A stretch of 64,000 bases of DNA from an uncultured bacterium (GTDB lineage: Bacteria; Chloroflexota; UBA5177; JANWHV01): positions 512,001-576,000 of the forward strand of contig CAVSOU010000010.1 in assembly GCA_963729625.1 (NCBI GenBank), read 5' to 3'. Below, in pieces: positions 23,224 through 56,297 of this stretch. The number at the start of each line of letters is the position of its first letter. Within the stretch, counting starts at the first letter, position 1. The position numbers were made by a program, and so were the translations under genes. The notes beneath the pieces are model-generated. The model saw nothing but the letters and a program-made list of their open reading frames with translations, had not been told where the DNA came from and made no database searches.

Positions 23224-25792
23224 ATGACGCTACGACGTTCCGGTGAATTCGTGAGGGCCTGTATTGCGATTGCCGCCTGCCTGCTGGCGTTGTGCCCGGA
23301 GATTAGCTCGCCTGGGGCCTTGGTCCTCGCAAGCAGCCCCGTCATTGCAGTGGCGCCAGAAGTGAACCTCCCGCATGGACTAGAATCGATAACGGGTTCA
23401 GGGTTCGATCCAGGCGCCCAGGTTGATCTATCAGTACAGAGTACGGACATGACGAGTACCCTGGGAATCCTCGTGGCCGACGCATCTGGATCGATACGTT
23501 CCTCCATCACGCTACCGTATACGCTTGACGCCGGTCTTGCCAACATGGTCATTGCGCACGAGCCAGGAAGCGCAGTCAGCGCCAGCGCATCGGTGACCGG
23601 CGCTGCGGTGATGCCGACTGCCGGGAACGGACTGCAGATCTCCGCGAATCCCGGTGATACGCTGCACCTCCATGTCGTGGGCTTTGCGCCTCGAGATCCT
23701 CTCGCGATTCTGGTCGGTGGCCAGCCCGCGCTGATGCCGCCAGGGATTTCGCAGTATGTCACAGATCCAACTGGGACAGCAATATCTGACGTTTGCGGTG
23801 CCGGCTTTCGGACAACCCGGTCCAAGCCAGATCGTGGTGAGCGGCGCAGCAGCCGGCTCCGGTCAGGTTGACTCCACAAGCATCCCGGTGAATATCGCTG
23901 GGAACGGCACGCTCGTGGTCACGCCGAACCCGGCGCTGGCCGGTCAGACCGTTGCGATCGCCGCCGCCGGCTTCACCCCCGGGGAACAAGTCATCATCTC
24001 GCTCGACTACGTCGATGCGGGAACGCACGGTGGCGCCCTGGCTGGCGCCTCCTCTCAGGCCGACCAGGGTGGGAAGCTTGACACTGATTTCGCGCTTCCT
24101 GCTACGGTTACCGGCGGCTTTACCGCCACAGTTGACGCGCGCGGATCGGTTTCAGGCATCGTGCTGAGCCGCGACGTTTTCATCCACTCACAGCCAAAGA
24201 TCGCACTCGACCCGCCAGGAGCACCGGCCGGCTCGAACGTCACGGTGAAAGGAAGCGGTTTTGCCCCTGGCGAGCGCGTCTATGTGACGGCGCAGGCCTT
24301 CAGCGCTCCAAGCGGCGGGGTCGTCGCCGATGCCTCGGGCAGCTTCACGGATACGACAAGCGTCCGTTCGCTGGCGTCGGCCGGAGTATACTTGGTTGGC
24401 GCTTCGGGCATCCTTGGACACTCCGCATCGTCCGAGTTGACTGTCCCTCGCGTTCGCGTGCCAACTTCCGGGGTTGCCGCGCAAAGTCCGGTCGTCGACA
24501 GGACGTTCTTCGCGGAGGGATTCACCGGTGATGGGCCGGCAGTGCACTTCGGTGAGAGCCTGTACCTGCTCAATACTGCTTCGCTCACGGCGACAGGCTC
24601 TATTCAGTATTTCATAGGCATGGGCATCACGAAGACGGTCAGCATCACCGTGCCGGCGCACGCGGTTCTGAGCGAAAATGTCGGGCAGGATGTCGGCAAG
24701 AATCAGACTGTTAGTGCAATGCTTGAGCTACCCTCGTCCATCAGCGTGACGCGTACCATAACTCGAACTACCGACACAGGCCAGTCCCTTGCCTCGAGCA
24801 TAAGCTCAGGTGAGTCGGCGCTCGCTAACACCTGGTACTTTGCGGAAGGTTACACCGGAGCGACGTTTCAGGAATACCTTGCGATACTGAACCCCGGCGC
24901 CAGCCCGGCGCAAGTAACTGTTGAACTGTTCGGCCCAGATAGCTCGTCGCCAGAGGTGCCGACAAGCGTGACCGTTGCCCCGCATTCGCGCGTGACCCTC
25001 AATATGAGGGCCGTTGCCCCGGGCCGCTCCATAGGCTTGCTCCTGACGTCTGACCAACCCGTTGCCTCCGAGCGCGTGCTTTACTGGGGCGACGGCACCG
25101 GCTCAGCCAAGTACGGATCGGCCGTGAGCGGCGGCGTGCTTGGACCTGCGGCGACTTGGACTTTTCCCTACGTCTCCACTGCCGGAGGCGACCAGGCGTA
25201 CCTCAGTTTCATTGACCCCAGCTCTGTAGCCGCGCATGTGCAATTCACTGAGCTTGGTGATCGCGCGGGCGTAGCGCTTCCTACCGACCTGACGATTCAG
25301 CCGGGTACTCGCGCCACCCTCCAGATCATGGCGGGCTCCAGCTCAATCGGTGGCTCCGCCGCTGTCGTGGTTCACGCCGACGTACCGATAGTCAGCGAAC
25401 AGGCAGAATATTTTGGAGGCTCGCCGAACACAGGTTCCCACACCGGTAGCATTCTATCGGGCGCCGAGCCTACTTCACAGTGGGCGTTCCCGAGTTTGGA
25501 TTCGGATGGCTTCACCTCGGATATGTGGTACGTCGCCAACACCGGACCGAAGAACGCCCAGCTGACCGCAACTATCTATAGTGCGGATGGACAGAACTCC
25601 ACGGTCAAACTCGTGGCGCCCTCGGGACGGCTCGCCAGACTGAGTCTGGATGAATCGAAAAGCGGCCACGTGGGCGCCCCCGTTGTGTGGAACAGCGATG
25701 GTCCGGTGAGTATCATCCGCCTGGTCCGTGCCGCTGGTGCCGACGTCGCCGACATCATCGCCGGAATGGCAATTAGCCAGAACGGCCCATAG
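23224..25792 (+). pseudogene. large secreted protein (Ig-like GSGF repeats + WYFAEG/DUF5719-like repeats) split by an apparent 1-nt frameshift
   Basis: ORFs 23203-23871 (signal peptide) and 23756-25792 overlap; deleting one A at 23781-23782 gives ...TDPTGTA-YLTFAVP... in one ~855-aa frame. Repeated G(S/A)GFxPGE motifs occur on both sides of the junction. Confidence 0.75.
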
Positions 25793-49026: not shown

Positions 49027-49746
49027 ATGCGCGTATTATCCGGAAGCTGGATCTTCGCGGTGTTGACGCTATGCCTGCTGGGGCTGACGTTGCAGCCGGC
49101 GCGCGCGGGCAGCACACTGGTTCCGGCTGATAGCCCAAGCAGCCTCGCGATACCGGGCTCTGCTGTGCCGACCGGATACACGGTCGACGGTATGCAGAGC
49201 CACGCGATTACCAACCAACTGATGCTTTCGACGCTGGGACAGCACGCATCCAAGTTGTTTCAGCAAGAGGGCTGGGTTACCGGCTACCATGGATGGCTGA
49301 ATGCGAACGACCTGACGTATCAGGCCTTCATCACGTACGACTTCTATGGGTTCAAGACGGCGATCGGCGCGCAGGCTGCCGCGAGCTTGTATCTTGGTCT
49401 GGCATTAGGGGTACAGACGCCCACCTCGAACGGTGCACTCCCTCCGGATGCCCAGGTCTTCGTCGATTCGACCGGTGACTATAGCACAAATCTCAATGAC
49501 CTCCAGCCCTTTGTTGCCGTCGAGGTCGTGTTTCGGATCCAGAATGTTCTGGCCGACGTGACGGGTTACTATAGGGGCGGCGACAGCCAGACAATTGACG
49601 ACGCGACAACCGGCTCTATCAGCGCGGCTACGACCATCAGCACCTGGCTGTCGGAACGCGCGCGAACGGTCCATGGCAGTGAGCTGCCACTGCTCCTGCT
49701 GGCCTTTGCTATCTTCCCATGTGTACCGGGCCGGCGCCGGACATGA
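49027..49746 (+). CDS. secreted hypothetical protein with C-terminal hydrophobic tail
   Basis: GGAGG RBS; signal peptide ending ARA; C-terminus LPLLLLAFAIFPCVPGRRRT. Confidence 0.72.
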   Translation: MRVLSGSWIFAVLTLCLLGLTLQPARAGSTLVPADSPSSLAIPGSAVPTGYTVDGMQSHAITNQLMLSTLGQHASKLFQQEGWVTGYHGWLNANDLTYQAFITYDFYGFKTAIGAQAAASLYLGLALGVQTPTSNGALPPDAQVFVDSTGDYSTNLNDLQPFVAVEVVFRIQNVLADVTGYYRGGDSQTIDDATTGSISAATTISTWLSERARTVHGSELPLLLLAFAIFPCVPGRRRT

Positions 49747-49867
49747 GCAACCAATCCGCGCACCTGAGCCCAGAGAAGTTCGCGAACAGAACCGTACCGG
49801 TATCGCTGCGCCGCTCGCAACGGCCAGGATCAGGCCGCCAACACACTGGTCCGAGAGAGAGCCAGTA

Positions 49868-52800
49868 ATGCGGTGCTTAAGGTGCGCGCTGGATTACGGC
49901 CCGGACGACAAGTACTGCCTGAAGTGTGGCCGCGCCCTCAGCCGTCCTCCGGGAAGTGAAAAACGCGAAGGCCCTGAGCCGTCCGGAGTAGCGTCCGAGT
50001 ACATGTACTCGGCCAATTCACCAGCCAAGGTCGGCGATGCGCTTCCGTCGCACGATATCTCCGCAACCGAGTCCGGTTTGCCCTTGCATGGCCTGCTGGG
50101 AGCCGCAGGCCGCCTCATAACGCCCCCGGACGCTGACCAACGTGCGGCCACGCCCAGCAAGCGTTTGGCCGGTCACCTCAGATCCGCACCGGTCGCGCAC
50201 GATCCGTCGGCCAGGCCCCAACCACGCGCAAGTGGAAGACTCGACCGAGCGGAGCTTGATCAACCCGACACGCCGACACCTGCTGACCTCCTCCCGCTTG
50301 AGAGGCTCCTTCGTTCGGCCACCGGCGAGGCGCCCGAGGGTGACGACGACGACGCGGAATCACTGCCAGGAGGCGTCCGATCGCGACCTGCAATGATCGG
50401 CGCCGAGCCGACCGGCATTCGCGGCCTGCACGGCGGGTACCAAACCCGTTCCCGTACCGTCCGGAATGTTGCCTGGGGATTAGCTGTTGTCCTGTTCGCC
50501 ATGGTGGCAGGATTGGCATACATACGGCACGGTACGTACGTCTCTGACATGCAATCGGGAAAGCGTTTGGCGCGTGCCGGCAACTACGCGGGCGCGATAG
50601 GCAAATATAGCAGTGCAATCGCGGATTGGCCGTTCCATGACGAGGCCTCGACCGCCCTTGCCAGTGCGAAAGCAACGGGTACCGCTGTCATGACCGGTGC
50701 TGAGCAGGTGCGCCTCGCCATGTATCAGAATCGTCTGGCCGCTCGGCAAAACGTAGCCAGTGAAGCCGATCTCTACGCCAATGCTACGGCCACGGCGGTG
50801 GTCGTAGCCACTGTCAACGCCGTGGAGAACAACACTGCCACGGCAATTGCGGCCGGAACTGCAACCGTCGTCGCACGTGCCAATGCCACCAGAGCCGTTA
50901 TTCTGCACCAGCACCAGGTTGCGCGGGCGAGCGCGCGCGCTACCGCGGCGGCCAGGGCCACTGCCCGGACGTTGGCTCGAGCGAAGGCTACGCGCCTGGC
51001 ACGCATTGCCACGGCCACCGCGCTGCGCTCAGCACACATATCTACGGCAACGGCCGTTGCGTATGCAACGCGCCAATCGGGCATTCGTGCCACCCGAACG
51101 GCAGTGGCGCGGGCAAAAGCCACTGCCCTCGCATCGCGAACGCCCCAAACGCCGACGCCCACTCGAAAACAGGCCGCCGCAACAACCACAGCCGAGGCGG
51201 TAGTCCAGGCGACCAATCTCGCGACGGTGGTCGAAGGGGCAATTCACGAGACGGCAACAGTCCAAACCGGCATCGCCATGAGGACGGCAACAGCACGAGC
51301 GCTCGCCGCCGAAATCGCGGCGACACGTGTGGCGTATGTCGCTCGCGTTCGCGCGGCCGACACGGCGACTGCCGTAGCCGGCCTGCCCCCCGCGACGCAG
51401 ACGGCAATCGCGATGCAGTCTGCGGCGGCGCACGGCACAAGCAACGGGGGAGGAACCCCGTCTGGACAAGCGGCCGCCTCCAACGCGACCGCAACGGCCC
51501 GCGCGGCTGCGATAGCGGCCTCAAATGCCAAGCAGACCGTAGTCGCGCAAGTGCATGCGACGGACACAGCTGCCGGCGTGGCAAGACATGCCCAACAGAC
51601 CGCTACGGCGCGCGCCCAGCACGCCGCTCTCGCCCAACAGACCGCTACGGCTCAAGCCCAGCACGCCGCTCACGCCCAACAGACCGCTACGGCTCAAGCC
51701 CAGCACGCCGCTCACGCCCAACAAACCGCTGCGGCTCAAGCGCGTGGTACCGTGGCTGCGGAGGAGCGAGCTACGGCGGCAATGGCAAAGGCGGCTGCGA
51801 CGGCAGGGGCCAGTTCGGCAGCACTCGCTACCGCGGACGCAGCAACGGCGACTGCTGTGGCACGCTCCTCGTCGAACGCAACTGCGATAGCGCGATCAAC
51901 CGCGATTGCGAGGTCCGCTGCCGCTACGGCCGTCGCCCAGTCTGCAGCAACCGCGACGGCTGCCGCACGCTCCGCCGCCACCGCGGAGGCGAAATCTGCC
52001 GCCGCTACCGCCGAGGCCAGTTCGGCAGCACTCGCCACCGCGGACGCGGCAACGGCGACCGCCGAGGCACGTTCCTCGTCGAATGCAACTGCGATAGCGC
52101 AATCAACCGCGGTTGCGAAGTCTGCTGCTGCGACCGCCGTCGCCCAGTCTGCAGCAACCGCGACGGCTGCCGCACGCGCCGCCGCGACCGAGCAGGCGAA
52201 ATCTACCGCCGCCACGGCGGTAGCTGCTGCCACTGCGGCCGCCAAGTCCGCCGCCGCCACGGCCGTAGCGGCTGCCACATCGGCTGCCAAGTCTGCTGCC
52301 GCAACGGCCGCCGCCCAGTCTGCAGCAACAGCGACGGCTGCCGCACGCTCCGCCGCCACCGCGGAGGCGAAATCTGCCGCCGCCACGGCGGTAGCTGCGG
52401 CCACTGCCAAGTCTGACGCCGCCACGGCGGTAGCTGCTGCCACTGCCACTGCCAAGTCTGCCGTCGCCACGGCCGTCACCCAATCTGCAAGCGCCACCGC
52501 AGCTGCGAGATCTGCCGCCACGTCAGTCGCGGCGACGGCTGTCGCGGCGACGGCTGTCGCGGCTCGCGCCCAAGCCACTGCAGCGGCGGTAGCTGCTGCC
52601 ACCGCCGCACAAGCAACCGCGCAGGCAGTTGCCAACAATGCGGCGGCAACTGCGGCTGCACAGCTTGGCAATGGTCAGCAAGGCACGCCCGTACCCCAGG
52701 GCGCGCCGATCGCGCTCACCTCCATGAACACCCAGGCGCGGGCGCCCGCGCCAGTGTGCGCCGGCAGATCTGAGTGCGTGGCCTTGGCTGCGGCCGTATC

Positions 52801-52948
52801 CGACGGCGACCACCTGACTCACCAACGTCCCAACATTGGGAGCCGCTGGCTCTGGAGCGCCCTGGGTTGGTGGGTCACAACAGGAGAAAAGAACGATGCG
52901 GCACGATCGCAACCGCGCCGCCGCCTGCTGACTCCACAGGCCGGCTGA
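49868..52948 (+). CDS. Zn-ribbon / TM / TPR-like protein with long Ala/Thr-rich repeat stalk
   Basis: CLRC-x12-CLKC, TM (VAWGLAVVLFAMVAGLAYI), GNYAGAIGKYSSAI, then ~650 aa of Ala/Thr repeats. Confidence 0.8.
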   Translation: MRCLRCALDYGPDDKYCLKCGRALSRPPGSEKREGPEPSGVASEYMYSANSPAKVGDALPSHDISATESGLPLHGLLGAAGRLITPPDADQRAATPSKRLAGHLRSAPVAHDPSARPQPRASGRLDRAELDQPDTPTPADLLPLERLLRSATGEAPEGDDDDAESLPGGVRSRPAMIGAEPTGIRGLHGGYQTRSRTVRNVAWGLAVVLFAMVAGLAYIRHGTYVSDMQSGKRLARAGNYAGAIGKYSSAIADWPFHDEASTALASAKATGTAVMTGAEQVRLAMYQNRLAARQNVASEADLYANATATAVVVATVNAVENNTATAIAAGTATVVARANATRAVILHQHQVARASARATAAARATARTLARAKATRLARIATATALRSAHISTATAVAYATRQSGIRATRTAVARAKATALASRTPQTPTPTRKQAAATTTAEAVVQATNLATVVEGAIHETATVQTGIAMRTATARALAAEIAATRVAYVARVRAADTATAVAGLPPATQTAIAMQSAAAHGTSNGGGTPSGQAAASNATATARAAAIAASNAKQTVVAQVHATDTAAGVARHAQQTATARAQHAALAQQTATAQAQHAAHAQQTATAQAQHAAHAQQTAAAQARGTVAAEERATAAMAKAAATAGASSAALATADAATATAVARSSSNATAIARSTAIARSAAATAVAQSAATATAAARSAATAEAKSAAATAEASSAALATADAATATAEARSSSNATAIAQSTAVAKSAAATAVAQSAATATAAARAAATEQAKSTAATAVAAATAAAKSAAATAVAAATSAAKSAAATAAAQSAATATAAARSAATAEAKSAAATAVAAATAKSDAATAVAAATATAKSAVATAVTQSASATAAARSAATSVAATAVAATAVAARAQATAAAVAAATAAQATAQAVANNAAATAAAQLGNGQQGTPVPQGAPIALTSMNTQARAPAPVCAGRSECVALAAAVSDGDHLTHQRPNIGSRWLWSALGWWVTTGEKNDAARSQPRRRLLTPQAG
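51590..51740 (+). repeat. 42-bp coding tandem repeat x ~3.6 (AQQTATAQAQHAAH)
   Basis: GCCCAACA(G/A)ACCGCT at 51590, 51632, 51674, 51716. Confidence 0.9.
51809..52222 (+). repeat. 207-bp (69-aa) imperfect tandem duplication
   Basis: GCCAGTTCGGCAGCACTCGC... begins at 51809 and again at 52016. Confidence 0.88.
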
Positions 52949-53015
52949 CGCCGGCAAAACAAGTGGCAAACGACGCGGCACCGGTCGGGTGCCCAGTCGT
53001 CGTCCGACGAGATTC

Positions 53016-53092
<77 letters not shown>

Positions 53093-53105
53093 AATTGGCC
53101 CCTGA

Positions 53106-53158
53106 ATTATATCGTTCTCAGACCTTGCTTGCCAACAGTGCCCTCACACGCATAGAAT
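53106..53158. promoter_or_regulatory. back-to-back sigma70-like promoters for the two tRNAs
   Basis: +: TTGCCA(53129)-18-TAGAAT(53153); -: TTGGCA(53135)-18-TATAAT(53111); the -35 boxes overlap. Confidence 0.6.
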
Positions 53159-53167
53159 GTCAATCAC

Positions 53168-53241
53168 GCCCCTATAGCTCAGATGGATAGAGCGAGCGCG
53201 TCCTAAGCGCTGCGTCGGCGGTTCGAGTCCGTCTAGGGGCA
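53168..53241 (+). tRNA. tRNA-Arg(CCT)
   Basis: GCCCCTA/TAGGGGC acceptor, AGCGC-GTCCTAA-GCGCT anticodon arm, GGTTCGAGTCC; CCA not encoded. Confidence 0.93.
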
Positions 53242-53504
53242 CAATCTGGTATGCTGTCAGTAGCACATGAGCCGTTTTAGACGATCCAGCTGCCGACCCA
53301 ACGTAGCGCTTCCGCCCCTGTGGCAGCGCAGTCAGCGCGCCCCTTCTCACATGCTACGTTGCTGGTGTACTTGCACACGATACATCGACGCCGCGTGCGC
53401 TTATTTGCGCGCCCGCCTTTCGGTAGCGATTGGCGTCGTCCTTCCGGCCAGTGCCTCCATATCGGCGCCAAGAGGCGTCCCAACTTTCTCCATGCAGGAG
53501 GCAT

Positions 53505-56000
53505 ATGTCCACTCCGTTAGACGAGGCATTGGAGGCTCCGTTCCATGCCGACGATAGTAACCTGGCCGCCAGGTCCGAATCGGACACCGGCGAAACACCG
53601 ACACCGACGGCGCTAGCACCGGTTGCCCCCGGCGTTGAGCCGGACCAGTCTGAAGCCCATTCCGCATCGTCGCGTGTTCGGCGCTTTGCACCCAAGCGTT
53701 CCCGATCCGTCAAGCCTACCGATGACCGGCTCGCCGTCTCTCCGGCGGAGGCTTTCGTGACGCCGGCCGTTGCGGGAGATCATAGCCAGACGATTGCGGA
53801 TGAGGTCGGTAGCGGCGTATCTGCAGTTGCCGCGCGTCTCGATGCACGGCAGGCGGACCGGCATGTTCCTGACGCCGCGCCGCAGGTCGCTTCAGGCAAT
53901 ATCCCAGGCCACGCCACCACGCAACATGCCCTCGTTGATCCGGGGGTCGTTCAGACCCCGGCCCGGACCACCCGGCCTTCGCGCTCGCGTTCGCGACAGC
54001 CCAGGGCAGGAGCAGCCGCGGTTCACGCCACGTTGCCCGATGTTTCAGCACCTGCCCGGCCGGAGGTTCAGCTATCGGCTGAGCACTCCCAGGCGGCTAG
54101 CGCCACAATTGAGCTTTTGCGTGACCCGCGCCCCGAAACCGCCGACATTGCTGGAGGCGCCCATGCTCCCTCGTTGGCCGTGAGCGTTGAGCCAGCGGCC
54201 GTGCATGGTGAGGTCACGTCCACGCTAGCCACTGATAGCGAGCAGGGAGCTACGGACGCTGCGCTGACTAGCGCGAAGCGCCCGCCTCGCAGACGTTCGC
54301 GCGCGAGAGGTTCACGCAAAGCGGGCAGCGTCGTTCCGAACGAGTCGGCGCCCGTTGAAGCTCCCGAAGCGGAGCCGCCGGCGCCGTCGACTGACCTGCT
54401 GGCCGACGATGCGCTGTCCGAGCAGATTGGCGTCTCCACGGCCAGTAACCTCGACGTCACGACCACGGACCAAGCTGAGCCGCGCGTGCTAGATAAGCAG
54501 GCATCGACGCGGCCGCCTCGTTCCCGGCGCCCGCGGCGCCGGACGCCGTCCGGGGCCAGTCAGCCGGCAACGCCGACCAGCAACGTCGGTCAGGACGACG
54601 CGGTCGTCGTCGATTCAGCCGCGTCGGGCGATTTCATCGCCAGCGCGGAAGCGACCCTGGAGGAGCCGTTCTTCCTGACTGCACCCGGTGGCGAGGTCGA
54701 TGGAGCCGAGGCGTTAGCCCGGTCACTCCTCGACATGTTCCCTCCCATCGAAGAGATCCAGGCTGTGGTTGACGGTGAGACGGGCCTGGAGCAGGCGTTG
54801 CCCCACGAACTCGATGGGCTGGACGAAGCCGTCGAGTCAGAGTCCATACCGGGTGATGACGTCCCTACGAGCTCGGCGATCTCGTCTGATGTGGAGGAGG
54901 ATTCCGGCTCGGATGCCGCGCGCCGCCGCGGACGCCGAGGTCGTCGAGGCGGACGAGGTAGGAGGCGCGGGGCACTGCACGTAATTCCGGATACAGAGAC
55001 CGCCACCGAGCCGGCCGATGCGCCTTTGGCAGCCGAGGCTCTGGTGCCTCGGCCGGAGGCGCCGATACAGAACTATGCGGATTTGTTTACGCCGGATGTG
55101 AGCGGACGGATCGAGCGGCCCTGGCGCGAGCGTGGCCCGCAGCGGCGCTGGGGGCGCACGTTCCCGCGAAGCGCGCAATCAATCGCCATGCCGCCGCCCA
55201 AGCCCAGCCAGACTGGGCGCTTTGCGCCCATTCCGCAAGCCGTCGCACCGTCGCTGATCTCGCAACCAGTGCAACCGCTGGTAGCGCGGGCGGCGCCGCT
55301 GATTGAGCTGCCCAGTCTGCGAACCGACGAGCCTTTGGCGCCTGGGGAGAGCAGGACCGAGCGCTTGCTGGACATTCAGAATCAATTGCTGCGCGCGATG
55401 ATAGAGGGCCAATCTCGCCAGATCGAGTCGCTGACCGCTAACGTCGACGCACTCCATCAGGCCGTTCGGGATCTGGCGGCCGGCGCGGGCGCGCGCGCGT
55501 TCAAGCCCAAGACCGCCATCTTCGTCGATGCACCCAATGTCTGCTACGCGGCAGCCAATGCGCGTGTCAACCTCGATTTCGGGCGCATGCTCAAGTATCT
55601 GTCGCGCGACCGCCATCTCGTTCACGCCTTATCCTACTCGCCGATCATCGACGATGTGCGCGAGGGTATCCGATACGAGACGCAAAGATTCGTCGCGCCG
55701 TTCCTGCGAACCGGATACAAGCTGATCACAAAGCCGTTAAAGCGCTTCTCGGACGGCAGCGCAAAGGGGAACTTCGATCTCGAGTTGGCGCTCGATATCT
55801 TGACCATGGCTGAACGCCTCGACGTCGTCGTATTGGTGTCTGGTGACAGCGATTTCGAGTGCGTCATCGAGCACATCCAGCAGAGAGGCGTGCGTGTGGA
55901 AGTCGTAGCCTTCGCCTCCAACGTCTCAACCGAGTTGGTGAATATCGCCGACTCGTTCATCGACATCATGCAGCACGTCGAACATTTCAAGGCGCTCTAG
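53505..56000 (+). CDS. NYN (LabA/DUF88, PIN-fold) nuclease with ~660-aa disordered N-terminus
   Basis: AGGAGG RBS; C-terminal IFVDAPN, KGNFDLELALD, LVSGDSDF, GVRVEV, ADSFID. Confidence 0.9.
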   Translation: MSTPLDEALEAPFHADDSNLAARSESDTGETPTPTALAPVAPGVEPDQSEAHSASSRVRRFAPKRSRSVKPTDDRLAVSPAEAFVTPAVAGDHSQTIADEVGSGVSAVAARLDARQADRHVPDAAPQVASGNIPGHATTQHALVDPGVVQTPARTTRPSRSRSRQPRAGAAAVHATLPDVSAPARPEVQLSAEHSQAASATIELLRDPRPETADIAGGAHAPSLAVSVEPAAVHGEVTSTLATDSEQGATDAALTSAKRPPRRRSRARGSRKAGSVVPNESAPVEAPEAEPPAPSTDLLADDALSEQIGVSTASNLDVTTTDQAEPRVLDKQASTRPPRSRRPRRRTPSGASQPATPTSNVGQDDAVVVDSAASGDFIASAEATLEEPFFLTAPGGEVDGAEALARSLLDMFPPIEEIQAVVDGETGLEQALPHELDGLDEAVESESIPGDDVPTSSAISSDVEEDSGSDAARRRGRRGRRGGRGRRRGALHVIPDTETATEPADAPLAAEALVPRPEAPIQNYADLFTPDVSGRIERPWRERGPQRRWGRTFPRSAQSIAMPPPKPSQTGRFAPIPQAVAPSLISQPVQPLVARAAPLIELPSLRTDEPLAPGESRTERLLDIQNQLLRAMIEGQSRQIESLTANVDALHQAVRDLAAGAGARAFKPKTAIFVDAPNVCYAAANARVNLDFGRMLKYLSRDRHLVHALSYSPIIDDVREGIRYETQRFVAPFLRTGYKLITKPLKRFSDGSAKGNFDLELALDILTMAERLDVVVLVSGDSDFECVIEHIQQRGVRVEVVAFASNVSTELVNIADSFIDIMQHVEHFKAL

Positions 56001-56297
56001 GTCGGAAGCCAGGCATGGCAGTATACCGCCTTGCCTGGCGCCGCAGCCTGGTCCTGTATGATTTCGCCGTGGGGCAGCATCGGCCCAGGTGAGAACGGCT
56101 TCGCAATAGTCGACGCCGTGACATGCCGTTTTCAAGTCGCTGACCGAACGCTCGCATGCCTGAGCTACCCGCGCCCCACGACTGCCAATCGCCGAGCAAC
56201 CTCGCCGCTTAACGGCTCGATAGCATCGGCCACTTGCCGTGCACGTACGAGCACTTCAGGGTGCTTGGCCCGCCACATGGAATTGCAGTCTTCCTCG

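Follow-up and report, generated by a model that had tools for sequence, protein, structure and literature searches.

Why should a NYN-type nuclease domain sit at the end of a protein that consists mostly of a long, strongly charged arm? The question is raised by one gene in the window, as we call the whole 64,000-nucleotide stretch analyzed here (contig CAVSOU010000010.1 of assembly GCA_963729625.1, positions 512,001 to 576,000), which comes from a soil Chloroflexota bacterium. The coding sequence occupies positions 53505..56000 of the plus strand (831 amino acids and the stop codon), in a frame that is open from a TTG at 53430 to the stop at 56000, and the gene is single-copy in the host genome (5.4 Mb, 87% complete). 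The ATG at 53505 is assigned as the start codon because a GGAGG ribosome-binding site lies 5 nt upstream of it and because the N-termini of the aligned homologues share the same M-S/T-T residues as its product. The product comprises an arm of approximately 610 residues rich in Pro, Ala, Ser, and Arg, a helix with heptad spacing, and a NYN domain in the last approximately 165 residues. With moderate confidence, we favor the reading that it is an RNA-directed NYN endonuclease, which would be tethered to RNA by an Arg-Gly-rich (RG) box and a set of Arg blocks in the arm and is probably oligomerized by the helix. The coordinates of all features are collected in Table 1.

The sole Pfam domain in the protein is NYN (PF01936), which is matched over profile positions 1–144 of 145 with an E-value of 9e-27 (94.8 bits, against a cut-off of 24.2). 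Its acidic motifs are FVDAPN (D675, N678), GNFD (D758), and SGDSD (D781, D783), and residues D675, N678, D758, D764, D781, and D783 are invariant in an alignment of 93 sequences. The nearest solved structure by sequence is that of VPA0982 from Vibrio parahaemolyticus (PDB 2qip, E 3.4e-19), with which the acidic residues align. A search of the ESM Atlas returned NYN clusters alone (best 0.91), and the match to the NCBIfam NYN family TIGR00288 fell below the curated cut-off (22.6 bits versus 178.45). From these comparisons, the gene product most likely belongs to a Chloroflexota subfamily of the LabA/COG1432-type NYN (PIN-like), predicted metal-dependent nucleases. The LabA/DUF88 proteins (PF01936, NYN.COG1432), among them VPA0982, have a homologous NYN domain with the same acidic motifs; in the passages of the 2017 classification of the PIN superfamily cited here, they are described as single domains of approximately 165 residues or as proteins that pair the NYN domain with a folded OST-HTH domain (PMC5499597), whereas the window protein adds the helix and the arm of approximately 610 residues with its RG box. 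Within the helix (residues ~619–658), one heptad register places Leu, Ile, Val, or Met at 9 of 15 a/d positions, while the other six registers do so at 0–6. On the basis of these heptads, the helix is a predicted coiled coil or oligomerization element. An earlier note on this DNA had described a long N-terminal region followed by a heptad-like helix and a terminal NYN domain with intact DAPN, GNFD, and SGDSD motifs. The layout, the domain, its motifs, and the heptad spacing of the helix are all borne out.

The arm is distinctive in both composition and charge pattern. Residues 1–600 contain 11.2% Pro, 16.2% Ala, 9.7% Ser, 9.5% Arg, 7.0% Asp, and 7.0% Glu, and order-promoting residues make up 20% of residues 1–611 versus 44% of the NYN domain. 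When net charge is followed in sliding intervals of 10 residues, six positive blocks (residues 51–73, 151–171, 253–277, 331–353, 468–495, and 538–557; net +4 to +7 per 10 residues) alternate with negative blocks whose net charge is −3 to −5. Charge segregation was evaluated with a Das–Pappu-type measure against composition-preserving shuffles. The arm reached a z-score of 7.6, with 0 of 1000 shuffles as high, versus 0.0 for the NYN domain. Segregation is also significant in all 17 homologue arms tested (in 16 of them, 0 of 300 shuffles reached the observed value; in the remaining one, 2 of 300 did) and in three of the four arms tested from other families. No tandem or internal repeats were found in the arm.

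The RG box is strongly conserved and is the predicted main RNA-binding element: 13 of its 17 positions are invariant in 16 of 16 aligned sequences, and all 27 closest homologues carry it. The 20 residues preceding the box have a mean net charge of −4.0 (83% of the proteins are at −3 or lower), and the 20 residues following it average −3.1; these values come from the 151 of 240 family proteins that could be scored, the other 89 having no box at the threshold or flanks that are too short. A genome-wide search at equal stringency detected the box in one other open reading frame, a probably spurious frame of 114 residues. The alternation of Arg and acidic blocks and the place of the RG block, both pointed out in the earlier note, thereby proved accurate.

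Further motifs emerge from alignment A1, which comprises 16 homologues of 721–922 residues and contains in-frame indels. The first Arg block has the consensus RxRRFAPRRSRS, and a regular expression for it matches 18 of the 27 closest homologues, the nine others including N-terminally shorter or cut sequences. Toward the NYN domain, the alignment reads APGGDLDGxEALARALLEMFPP at residues 393–414, FTPE..ERSWRERGPRRRWGRTFPRD at residues 528–556, MPPPKPSNGxRFAPIPQA at residues 562–579, and LRxDEPLAPGETRTERLL at the transition into the helix. The motif at residues 393–414 is probably a short amphipathic helix within the arm.

These comparisons indicate that the arm is translated and under selection, because its motifs are shared in frame, its substitutions are constrained, and part of it forms a family-restricted module. 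In comparisons of the gene with two same-genus orthologues, the ratio of nonsynonymous to synonymous substitution rates (dN/dS) is approximately 0.35–0.42 in the arm and 0.05–0.15 in the helix and NYN domain; the values are rough, as dS exceeds 1 (saturated) and the arm alignment is gappy. A phmmer search with residues 380–668 against 1.84 billion representatives yielded 13 matches at E ≤ 0.001, of which 11 are NYN proteins of the same family and two (P0227 and P0228), in which Pfam finds no domain, are N-terminal pieces of proteins of that family. The module is confined to this NYN family among the 1.84 billion representatives. Conversely, the long N-terminus could be an annotation artifact of a GC-rich open frame, with the real start near the helix. 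The GC content at third codon positions of the arm (0.63–0.78) is not clearly distinctive, and two close database homologues open at internal methionines that lie within conserved motifs, namely P0110 (266 residues, on a 5.9-kb contig) and P0112 (204 residues, on a 42-kb contig). Such an artifact is barely credible, however, given the protein-level motifs kept with in-frame indels across 16 homologues, the ribosome-binding site at ATG 53505, and the arm dN/dS below 1. Moreover, eight of the ten closest short matches come from contigs no longer than 2 kb and hence are fragments, and the family protein is long on the contigs of two close relatives (G003 and P0007). A genuine short form resembling P0112 may exist in the close clade.

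The long N-terminus is also a property of the wider family, a point that the earlier note had raised. A word-seeded search with residues 600–831 returned 106 proteins of 457–1455 residues, and all 55 closest long homologues (at least 48% identity over residues 600–831) have a Pro/Ala/Arg-rich N-terminal region of 232–692 residues with one to five Arg blocks. The corresponding search among shorter proteins gave 502 matches. Among the 120 of these matches listed are many Chloroflexota/Dehalococcoidia proteins of 340–370 residues on long contigs, in which MVRFFGK... is followed by a basic Ala/Pro-rich region, RPPRRDWAAEAAA, KRRRGTRGGRGRKK, the helix, and the NYN domain. Between long and short forms, the alignment produced by hhalign is limited to the helix and NYN domain (residues 618–831; probability 100%, 50% identity), and it does not separate homology from convergence for their RG boxes. 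Of the four further genomes in the genus, three encode a full-length orthologue. Across the phylum, sampled evenly, the helix and NYN domain were detected at E ≤ 1e-15 in 117 of 301 genomes, in 100 of 245 high-quality genomes, and in 56 of 171 genera, and the sister families of the same class gave no match at this threshold. By hand count, approximately 71 of the 117 best matches lie in open frames of at least 400 residues, which is an upper bound, as the frames run from stop to stop. Both this sample and the set of 41 relatives considered below include one unpublished genome (G018), on which no conclusion rests.

Across these relatives, the RG-rich charged arms range from 140 to 760 residues and occur on either side of the nuclease. 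Families f22 and f26 have N-terminal arms of 600–750 residues with an SRRRRRRR block and the helix. In families f11 and f35, the NYN domain begins at residue 7 and is followed by an arm of 290–485 residues with RGRGRGRG and RRRRRRRRGGRGRGRG boxes, acidic blocks, and Pro/Ala repeats. The loci of this type (L022, L024, L028, and L029, in genomes G252, G040, G284, and G028) present a mirror image of the window architecture, and their Pro/Ala repeats end in KRRTSRR-type units. Because the arm is found on either terminus in different families, the nuclease appears to have kept its RG/acidic arm through rearrangement. In a midpoint-rooted tree of the NYN domain built from 56 rows hand-picked from approximately 240, the C-terminal-arm forms are sister to all N-terminal-arm forms. 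The window protein falls in a clade of 15 rows (starred in the tree) with arms of 363–759 residues, while arms in the neighboring forms are mostly 142–283 residues long, with two at 342 and 459; the clades agree with the family labels where checked. More distant NYN relatives from other phyla (P0057–P0106; Acidobacteriota and Handelsmanbacteria by source names) have a Lys/Arg/Glu-rich, Pro-poor N-terminus of approximately 270 residues and a short C-terminal tail. Their N-terminal regions are probably long coiled coils, not disordered arms. No paper on disordered or RG-rich arms in NYN proteins of bacteria or Chloroflexota emerged from literature searches.

In the RNA-tethered endonuclease that we favor, the NYN domain would cut RNA with Mg2+ held by D675, D758, D781, and D783, as its family membership suggests. 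Multivalent electrostatic contacts with the RG box and Arg blocks would hold the RNA in place, and the helix, judging from its heptads, would make the enzyme dimeric or oligomeric. By analogy, the alternating charge blocks would allow self-association, possibly as RNA-dependent condensates, and RRFAPRRSRS, LARALLEMFPP, WRERGPRRRWGR, and PPPKPS..RFAPIPQA are candidate docking sites for partners. The enzyme would work in an accessory capacity alongside the phylum's RNase Y, RNase J, and PNPase and would not replace RNase E. A eukaryotic parallel is MARF1, a component of processing bodies (P-bodies), which likewise combines a NYN domain with RNA-binding modules and is associated with RNA granules (PMC5499597, in the part cited here). 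Its accessories (RRM and LOTUS) are folded, its sequence is distant, and it belongs to the eukaryote-specific NYN.1 group, whereas the window protein relies on an RG-box arm.

Several points weigh against this reading. RNA binding, oligomerization, and phase separation are all read from sequence, and the intrinsic disorder of the arm is a prediction from residue composition. Under a strict rule, only 13 of 28 second-tier homologues (P0028–P0055) carry an RG-box variant such as RRRRRRGRGGRG. Blockiness is not universal either, as the long-armed f22 protein L020 has a z-score of 1.2 (57 of 500 shuffles), which is not significant. Regarding catalysis, the 2017 classification states that no PF01936 member had yet been investigated for nuclease activity, so that no bacterial PF01936/LabA protein was established as a nuclease at that time, and it gives the biochemical activity of LabA as unknown (PMC5499597). 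LabA itself is known only from genetics.

The earlier note had gone further, casting the protein as an analogue of RNase E, that is, an oligomeric organizing hub of RNA decay that scaffolds a degradosome (PNPase, helicase, enolase) and forms condensates resembling bacterial ribonucleoprotein bodies (BR-bodies). The likeness in sequence style stands. The C-terminal scaffold of RNase E, which forms BR-bodies in Caulobacter and organizes the degradosome in E. coli, shares with the window protein disordered alternating charge blocks and Arg-rich segments joined to an endonuclease. The criterion described for Caulobacter RNase E, in the part of the source cited here, is blocks of 10–30 residues with a net charge of +/−2 to 8 per 10 residues (10.1101/272286), and the sizes and charges of the blocks in the window arm fit it. 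Moreover, the sole RNase E/G among the 41 relatives (L037, G036:C31:1500-7500, minus strand) contains an insert of approximately 500 residues with acidic and Arg blocks between its S1-like start and its catalytic domain; this insert has a similar RRWRGRRRRRGRG box and a segregation z-score of 7.0, versus 7.6 for the window arm. Several invariant short motifs of the arm could be docking sites, and RNase E/G (PF10150) was found neither in the protein nor anywhere in the 87% complete host genome. The expected lack of RNase E in genomes with the gene holds for the host, but it does not discriminate: RNase E/G was found in only one of the 41 relatives, taken regardless of whether they carry the NYN gene, so that its absence characterizes the phylum sample and does not set the gene carriers apart, and that one relative (G036) encodes a NYN protein in a frame of 696 residues as well. 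RNase Y, by comparison, is present in 39 of the 41 relatives (36 above the curated cut-off), and the host genome encodes RNase Y, two RNase J loci, and PNPase beside one of them, which is a Bacillus-type toolkit. The near-universal presence expected of a main decay initiator is seen for RNase Y and not for the NYN family, with its 117 of 301 genomes, 100 of 245 high-quality genomes, and absence from the sister families at the threshold; no RNA-decay gene is among its conserved neighbors. This patchy distribution, together with the RNase Y/J/PNPase toolkit, argues that the NYN protein is accessory and not the central initiator. It further differs from RNase E in its unrelated catalytic domain and in the N-terminal position of its arm. 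RNase Y carries KH and HD domains and a membrane anchor, unlike the window protein, with which it coexists in the host. What the two share is a helical or partly disordered N-terminal region, which in RNase Y (TIGR03319) is proposed to mediate self-association and partner contacts (PMC9775385). In function, RNase Y corresponds to RNase E (compare PMC8096251). A condensate or hub role is possible by analogy, and the organizing hub as originally drawn is unlikely. As a separate observation, PNPase and RNase J adjoin on the window's own contig, outside the window (G000:C10:20845-25559), and the match to this RNase J falls in two frames (23930-24169 and 24147-25559), perhaps because of a frameshift or an error in assembly.

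Among the other roles considered is the maturation of stable RNAs (tRNA or rRNA); here, the enzyme would be a processing or ribosome-associated nuclease whose basic arm binds rRNA or pre-tRNA and not mRNA. The gene lies directly downstream of a tRNA-Arg/tRNA-Pro pair in all four loci examined in its clade (the window, L018, L019, and L039), and a tRNA/rRNA U5-methyltransferase-family gene and gatA/gatB are found a few kilobases upstream. RNase E/G, which matures stable RNAs in other bacteria, is missing from these genomes. Bacterial NYN genes have also been tied by neighborhood to tRNA/rRNA processing (Anantharaman & Aravind 2006, cited in PMC5499597, in the part used here). The tRNA adjacency is, however, limited to one clade, with no tRNA within approximately 4 kb of the NYN gene in any of 10 loci that represent other families; the gene shows no enrichment of Arg AGG or Pro CCG codons, and no ribosomal or processing gene is a conserved neighbor across families. 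We therefore consider this role, too, rather unlikely. Arg-rich tails bind any polyanion, and the protein could instead be a non-catalytic, LabA-like regulator or a nucleoid nuclease for single-stranded DNA whose arm binds DNA or polyphosphate, an idea that the unknown biochemical activity of LabA, noted above, leaves room for. The invariance of all acidic metal-binding residues in 93 sequences argues for catalysis, and there is no DNA-metabolism context across families, a DNA polymerase III delta'-like neighbor being confined to f11 and f35; such a function is highly unlikely. An anti-phage or toxin-type NYN nuclease is more remote still. The generic NYN model of PADLOC (PDLC01154) does match, with an E-value of 1.3e-20, but this match covers the domain alone. 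The gene, present in one copy, sits in a housekeeping neighborhood kept in three genomes of the genus, a stable context that argues against a defense island, and it is widespread in the phylum, forms NYN clades that match family labels where checked, and has no conserved partner gene. An accessory, RNA-tethered endonuclease is the reading we retain.

In its own genus, the gene is preceded by gatA, gatB, the U5-methyltransferase-family gene, two unknown genes, and a gene for a zinc-ribbon/transmembrane/Ala-Thr-rich protein, and it is followed on the opposite strand by a luciferase-like oxidoreductase and a LacI regulator; this arrangement is syntenic in three genomes. The neighbors in families f11 and f35 are a GNAT gene and the DNA polymerase III delta'-like gene, and those in f22 and f26 are a CDP-alcohol phosphatidyltransferase and a GT4 glycosyltransferase. 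No conserved neighbor or partner gene was found across families, nor any RNA-decay, ribosomal, or processing gene in such a position. Upstream of the tRNA pair, on the same strand as the NYN gene, an open reading frame at 49595-52948 (+) encodes up to 1117 residues with no Pfam match; it has a zinc-ribbon-like CxxC...CxxC N-terminus, a hydrophobic segment, and approximately 700 residues of Ala/Thr/Gln-rich degenerate repeats (ATAxA...). A codon link between the NYN gene and the adjacent tRNA-Arg(CCT) and tRNA-Pro(CGG) was considered and rejected, since AGG accounts for 5 of its 76 Arg codons versus 13 of 165 in five reference genes, and CCG is likewise not enriched. An Rfam search of 52800-56200 returned the two tRNAs only, plus one weak chance match, and promoter-like hexamers are located at 53129-53158. 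Public sequencing runs list no RNA run carrying the source, only DNA runs in which its share is small.

The partly conserved leader between the tRNA-Arg gene and the start codon may itself carry a signal. The Shine-Dalgarno sequence GGAGGCAT (53497-53504) has a possible pairing partner in GTGCCTCC (53451-53458), which is invariant. RNAalifold predicts 60 pairs in the leader, 10 of them with compensatory changes, and the minimum free energy of the whole leader has a z-score of −2.4. Among the eight anti-Shine-Dalgarno pairs, seven are identical in all four leaders and none is compensatory, and hence they provide no covariation evidence. These features hint that the leader may be a translational control element occluding the Shine-Dalgarno sequence, which we offer only as a lead. 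The arrangement is reminiscent of the known autoregulation of rne.

Table 1. Positions in the window of the NYN gene's upstream elements and of the motifs and domains of its product.
Feature	Position	Strand	Remarks
tRNA-Pro(CGG)	53016..53092	-	ARAGORN; Rfam tRNA, 65.4 bits; divergent pair upstream of the gene
tRNA-Arg(CCT)	53168..53242	+	ARAGORN, Rfam; 262 nt before the ATG
Conserved 5' leader, 262 nt	53243..53504	+	extended -10-like TGGTATGCT (53247); invariant CACATGAGCC (53264)
Conserved basic motif RVRRFAPKRSRS (first Arg block)	53673..53708	+	aa 57-68, after the acidic head (aa 1-50)
Arg/Ser block RPSRSRSRQPR	53973..54005	+	aa 157-167; R162, R164 nearly invariant
Arg block KRPPRRRSRARGSRK	54276..54320	+	aa 258-272
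Arg block RPPRSRRPRRR	54510..54542	+	aa 336-346; R339, R341, R342 nearly invariant
Motif APGGxxDGxEALARxLLxMFPP	54681..54746	+	aa 393-414; L404, F412 invariant; A405, L408, P413 nearly so
Main acidic block	54795..54917	+	aa 431-471, immediately before the RG box
RG box RRRGRRGRRGGRGRRRG	54921..54971	+	aa 473-489
Trp/Arg motif FTPx..ERxWRERGPxRRWGRTFPR	55086..55172	+	aa 528-556; F528, W540, R541, W549, R555 invariant
Pro-rich motif MPPPKPSxxxRFAPIPQA	55188..55241	+	aa 562-579; P563, P565, K566, P567, R572, I576, P577, Q578, A579 invariant
LRxDEPLAPGE motif and heptad helix	55320..55478	+	aa 606-658; predicted oligomerization element
NYN (PF01936) nuclease domain	55509..55967	+	aa 669-821; D675, D758, D781, D783 intact

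A bolder interpretation, which we consider unlikely, is that the RG-box arm and the NYN domain constitute a third, unrecognized type of bacterial disordered-scaffold RNase beside RNase E and RNase Y. The protein would then organize RNA processing throughout the Chloroflexota, gathering into RNA-dependent condensates and recruiting partners by its invariant motifs. Its arm would matter so much that it was kept while it switched termini and stretched from 140 to more than 700 residues, and the enzyme would control its own synthesis through an anti-Shine-Dalgarno leader, as RNase E does. Soils and sediments are rich in Chloroflexota, whose RNA metabolism has hardly been studied. Bacteria encode very many NYN/LabA proteins, and none had a demonstrated biochemical activity as of the 2017 classification, in the part cited here (PMC5499597). 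The family offers a natural experiment, in which one nuclease core carries RG-rich, charge-blocked arms that differ in length and in the terminus they occupy. Should RNA capture or condensates be driven by the arm, the principle of P-bodies and BR-bodies would extend to a new enzyme and a new phylum, and the LabA family would gain a concrete function. Otherwise, the protein would still document that selection acts strongly on motifs within a long disordered region of a bacterial protein.

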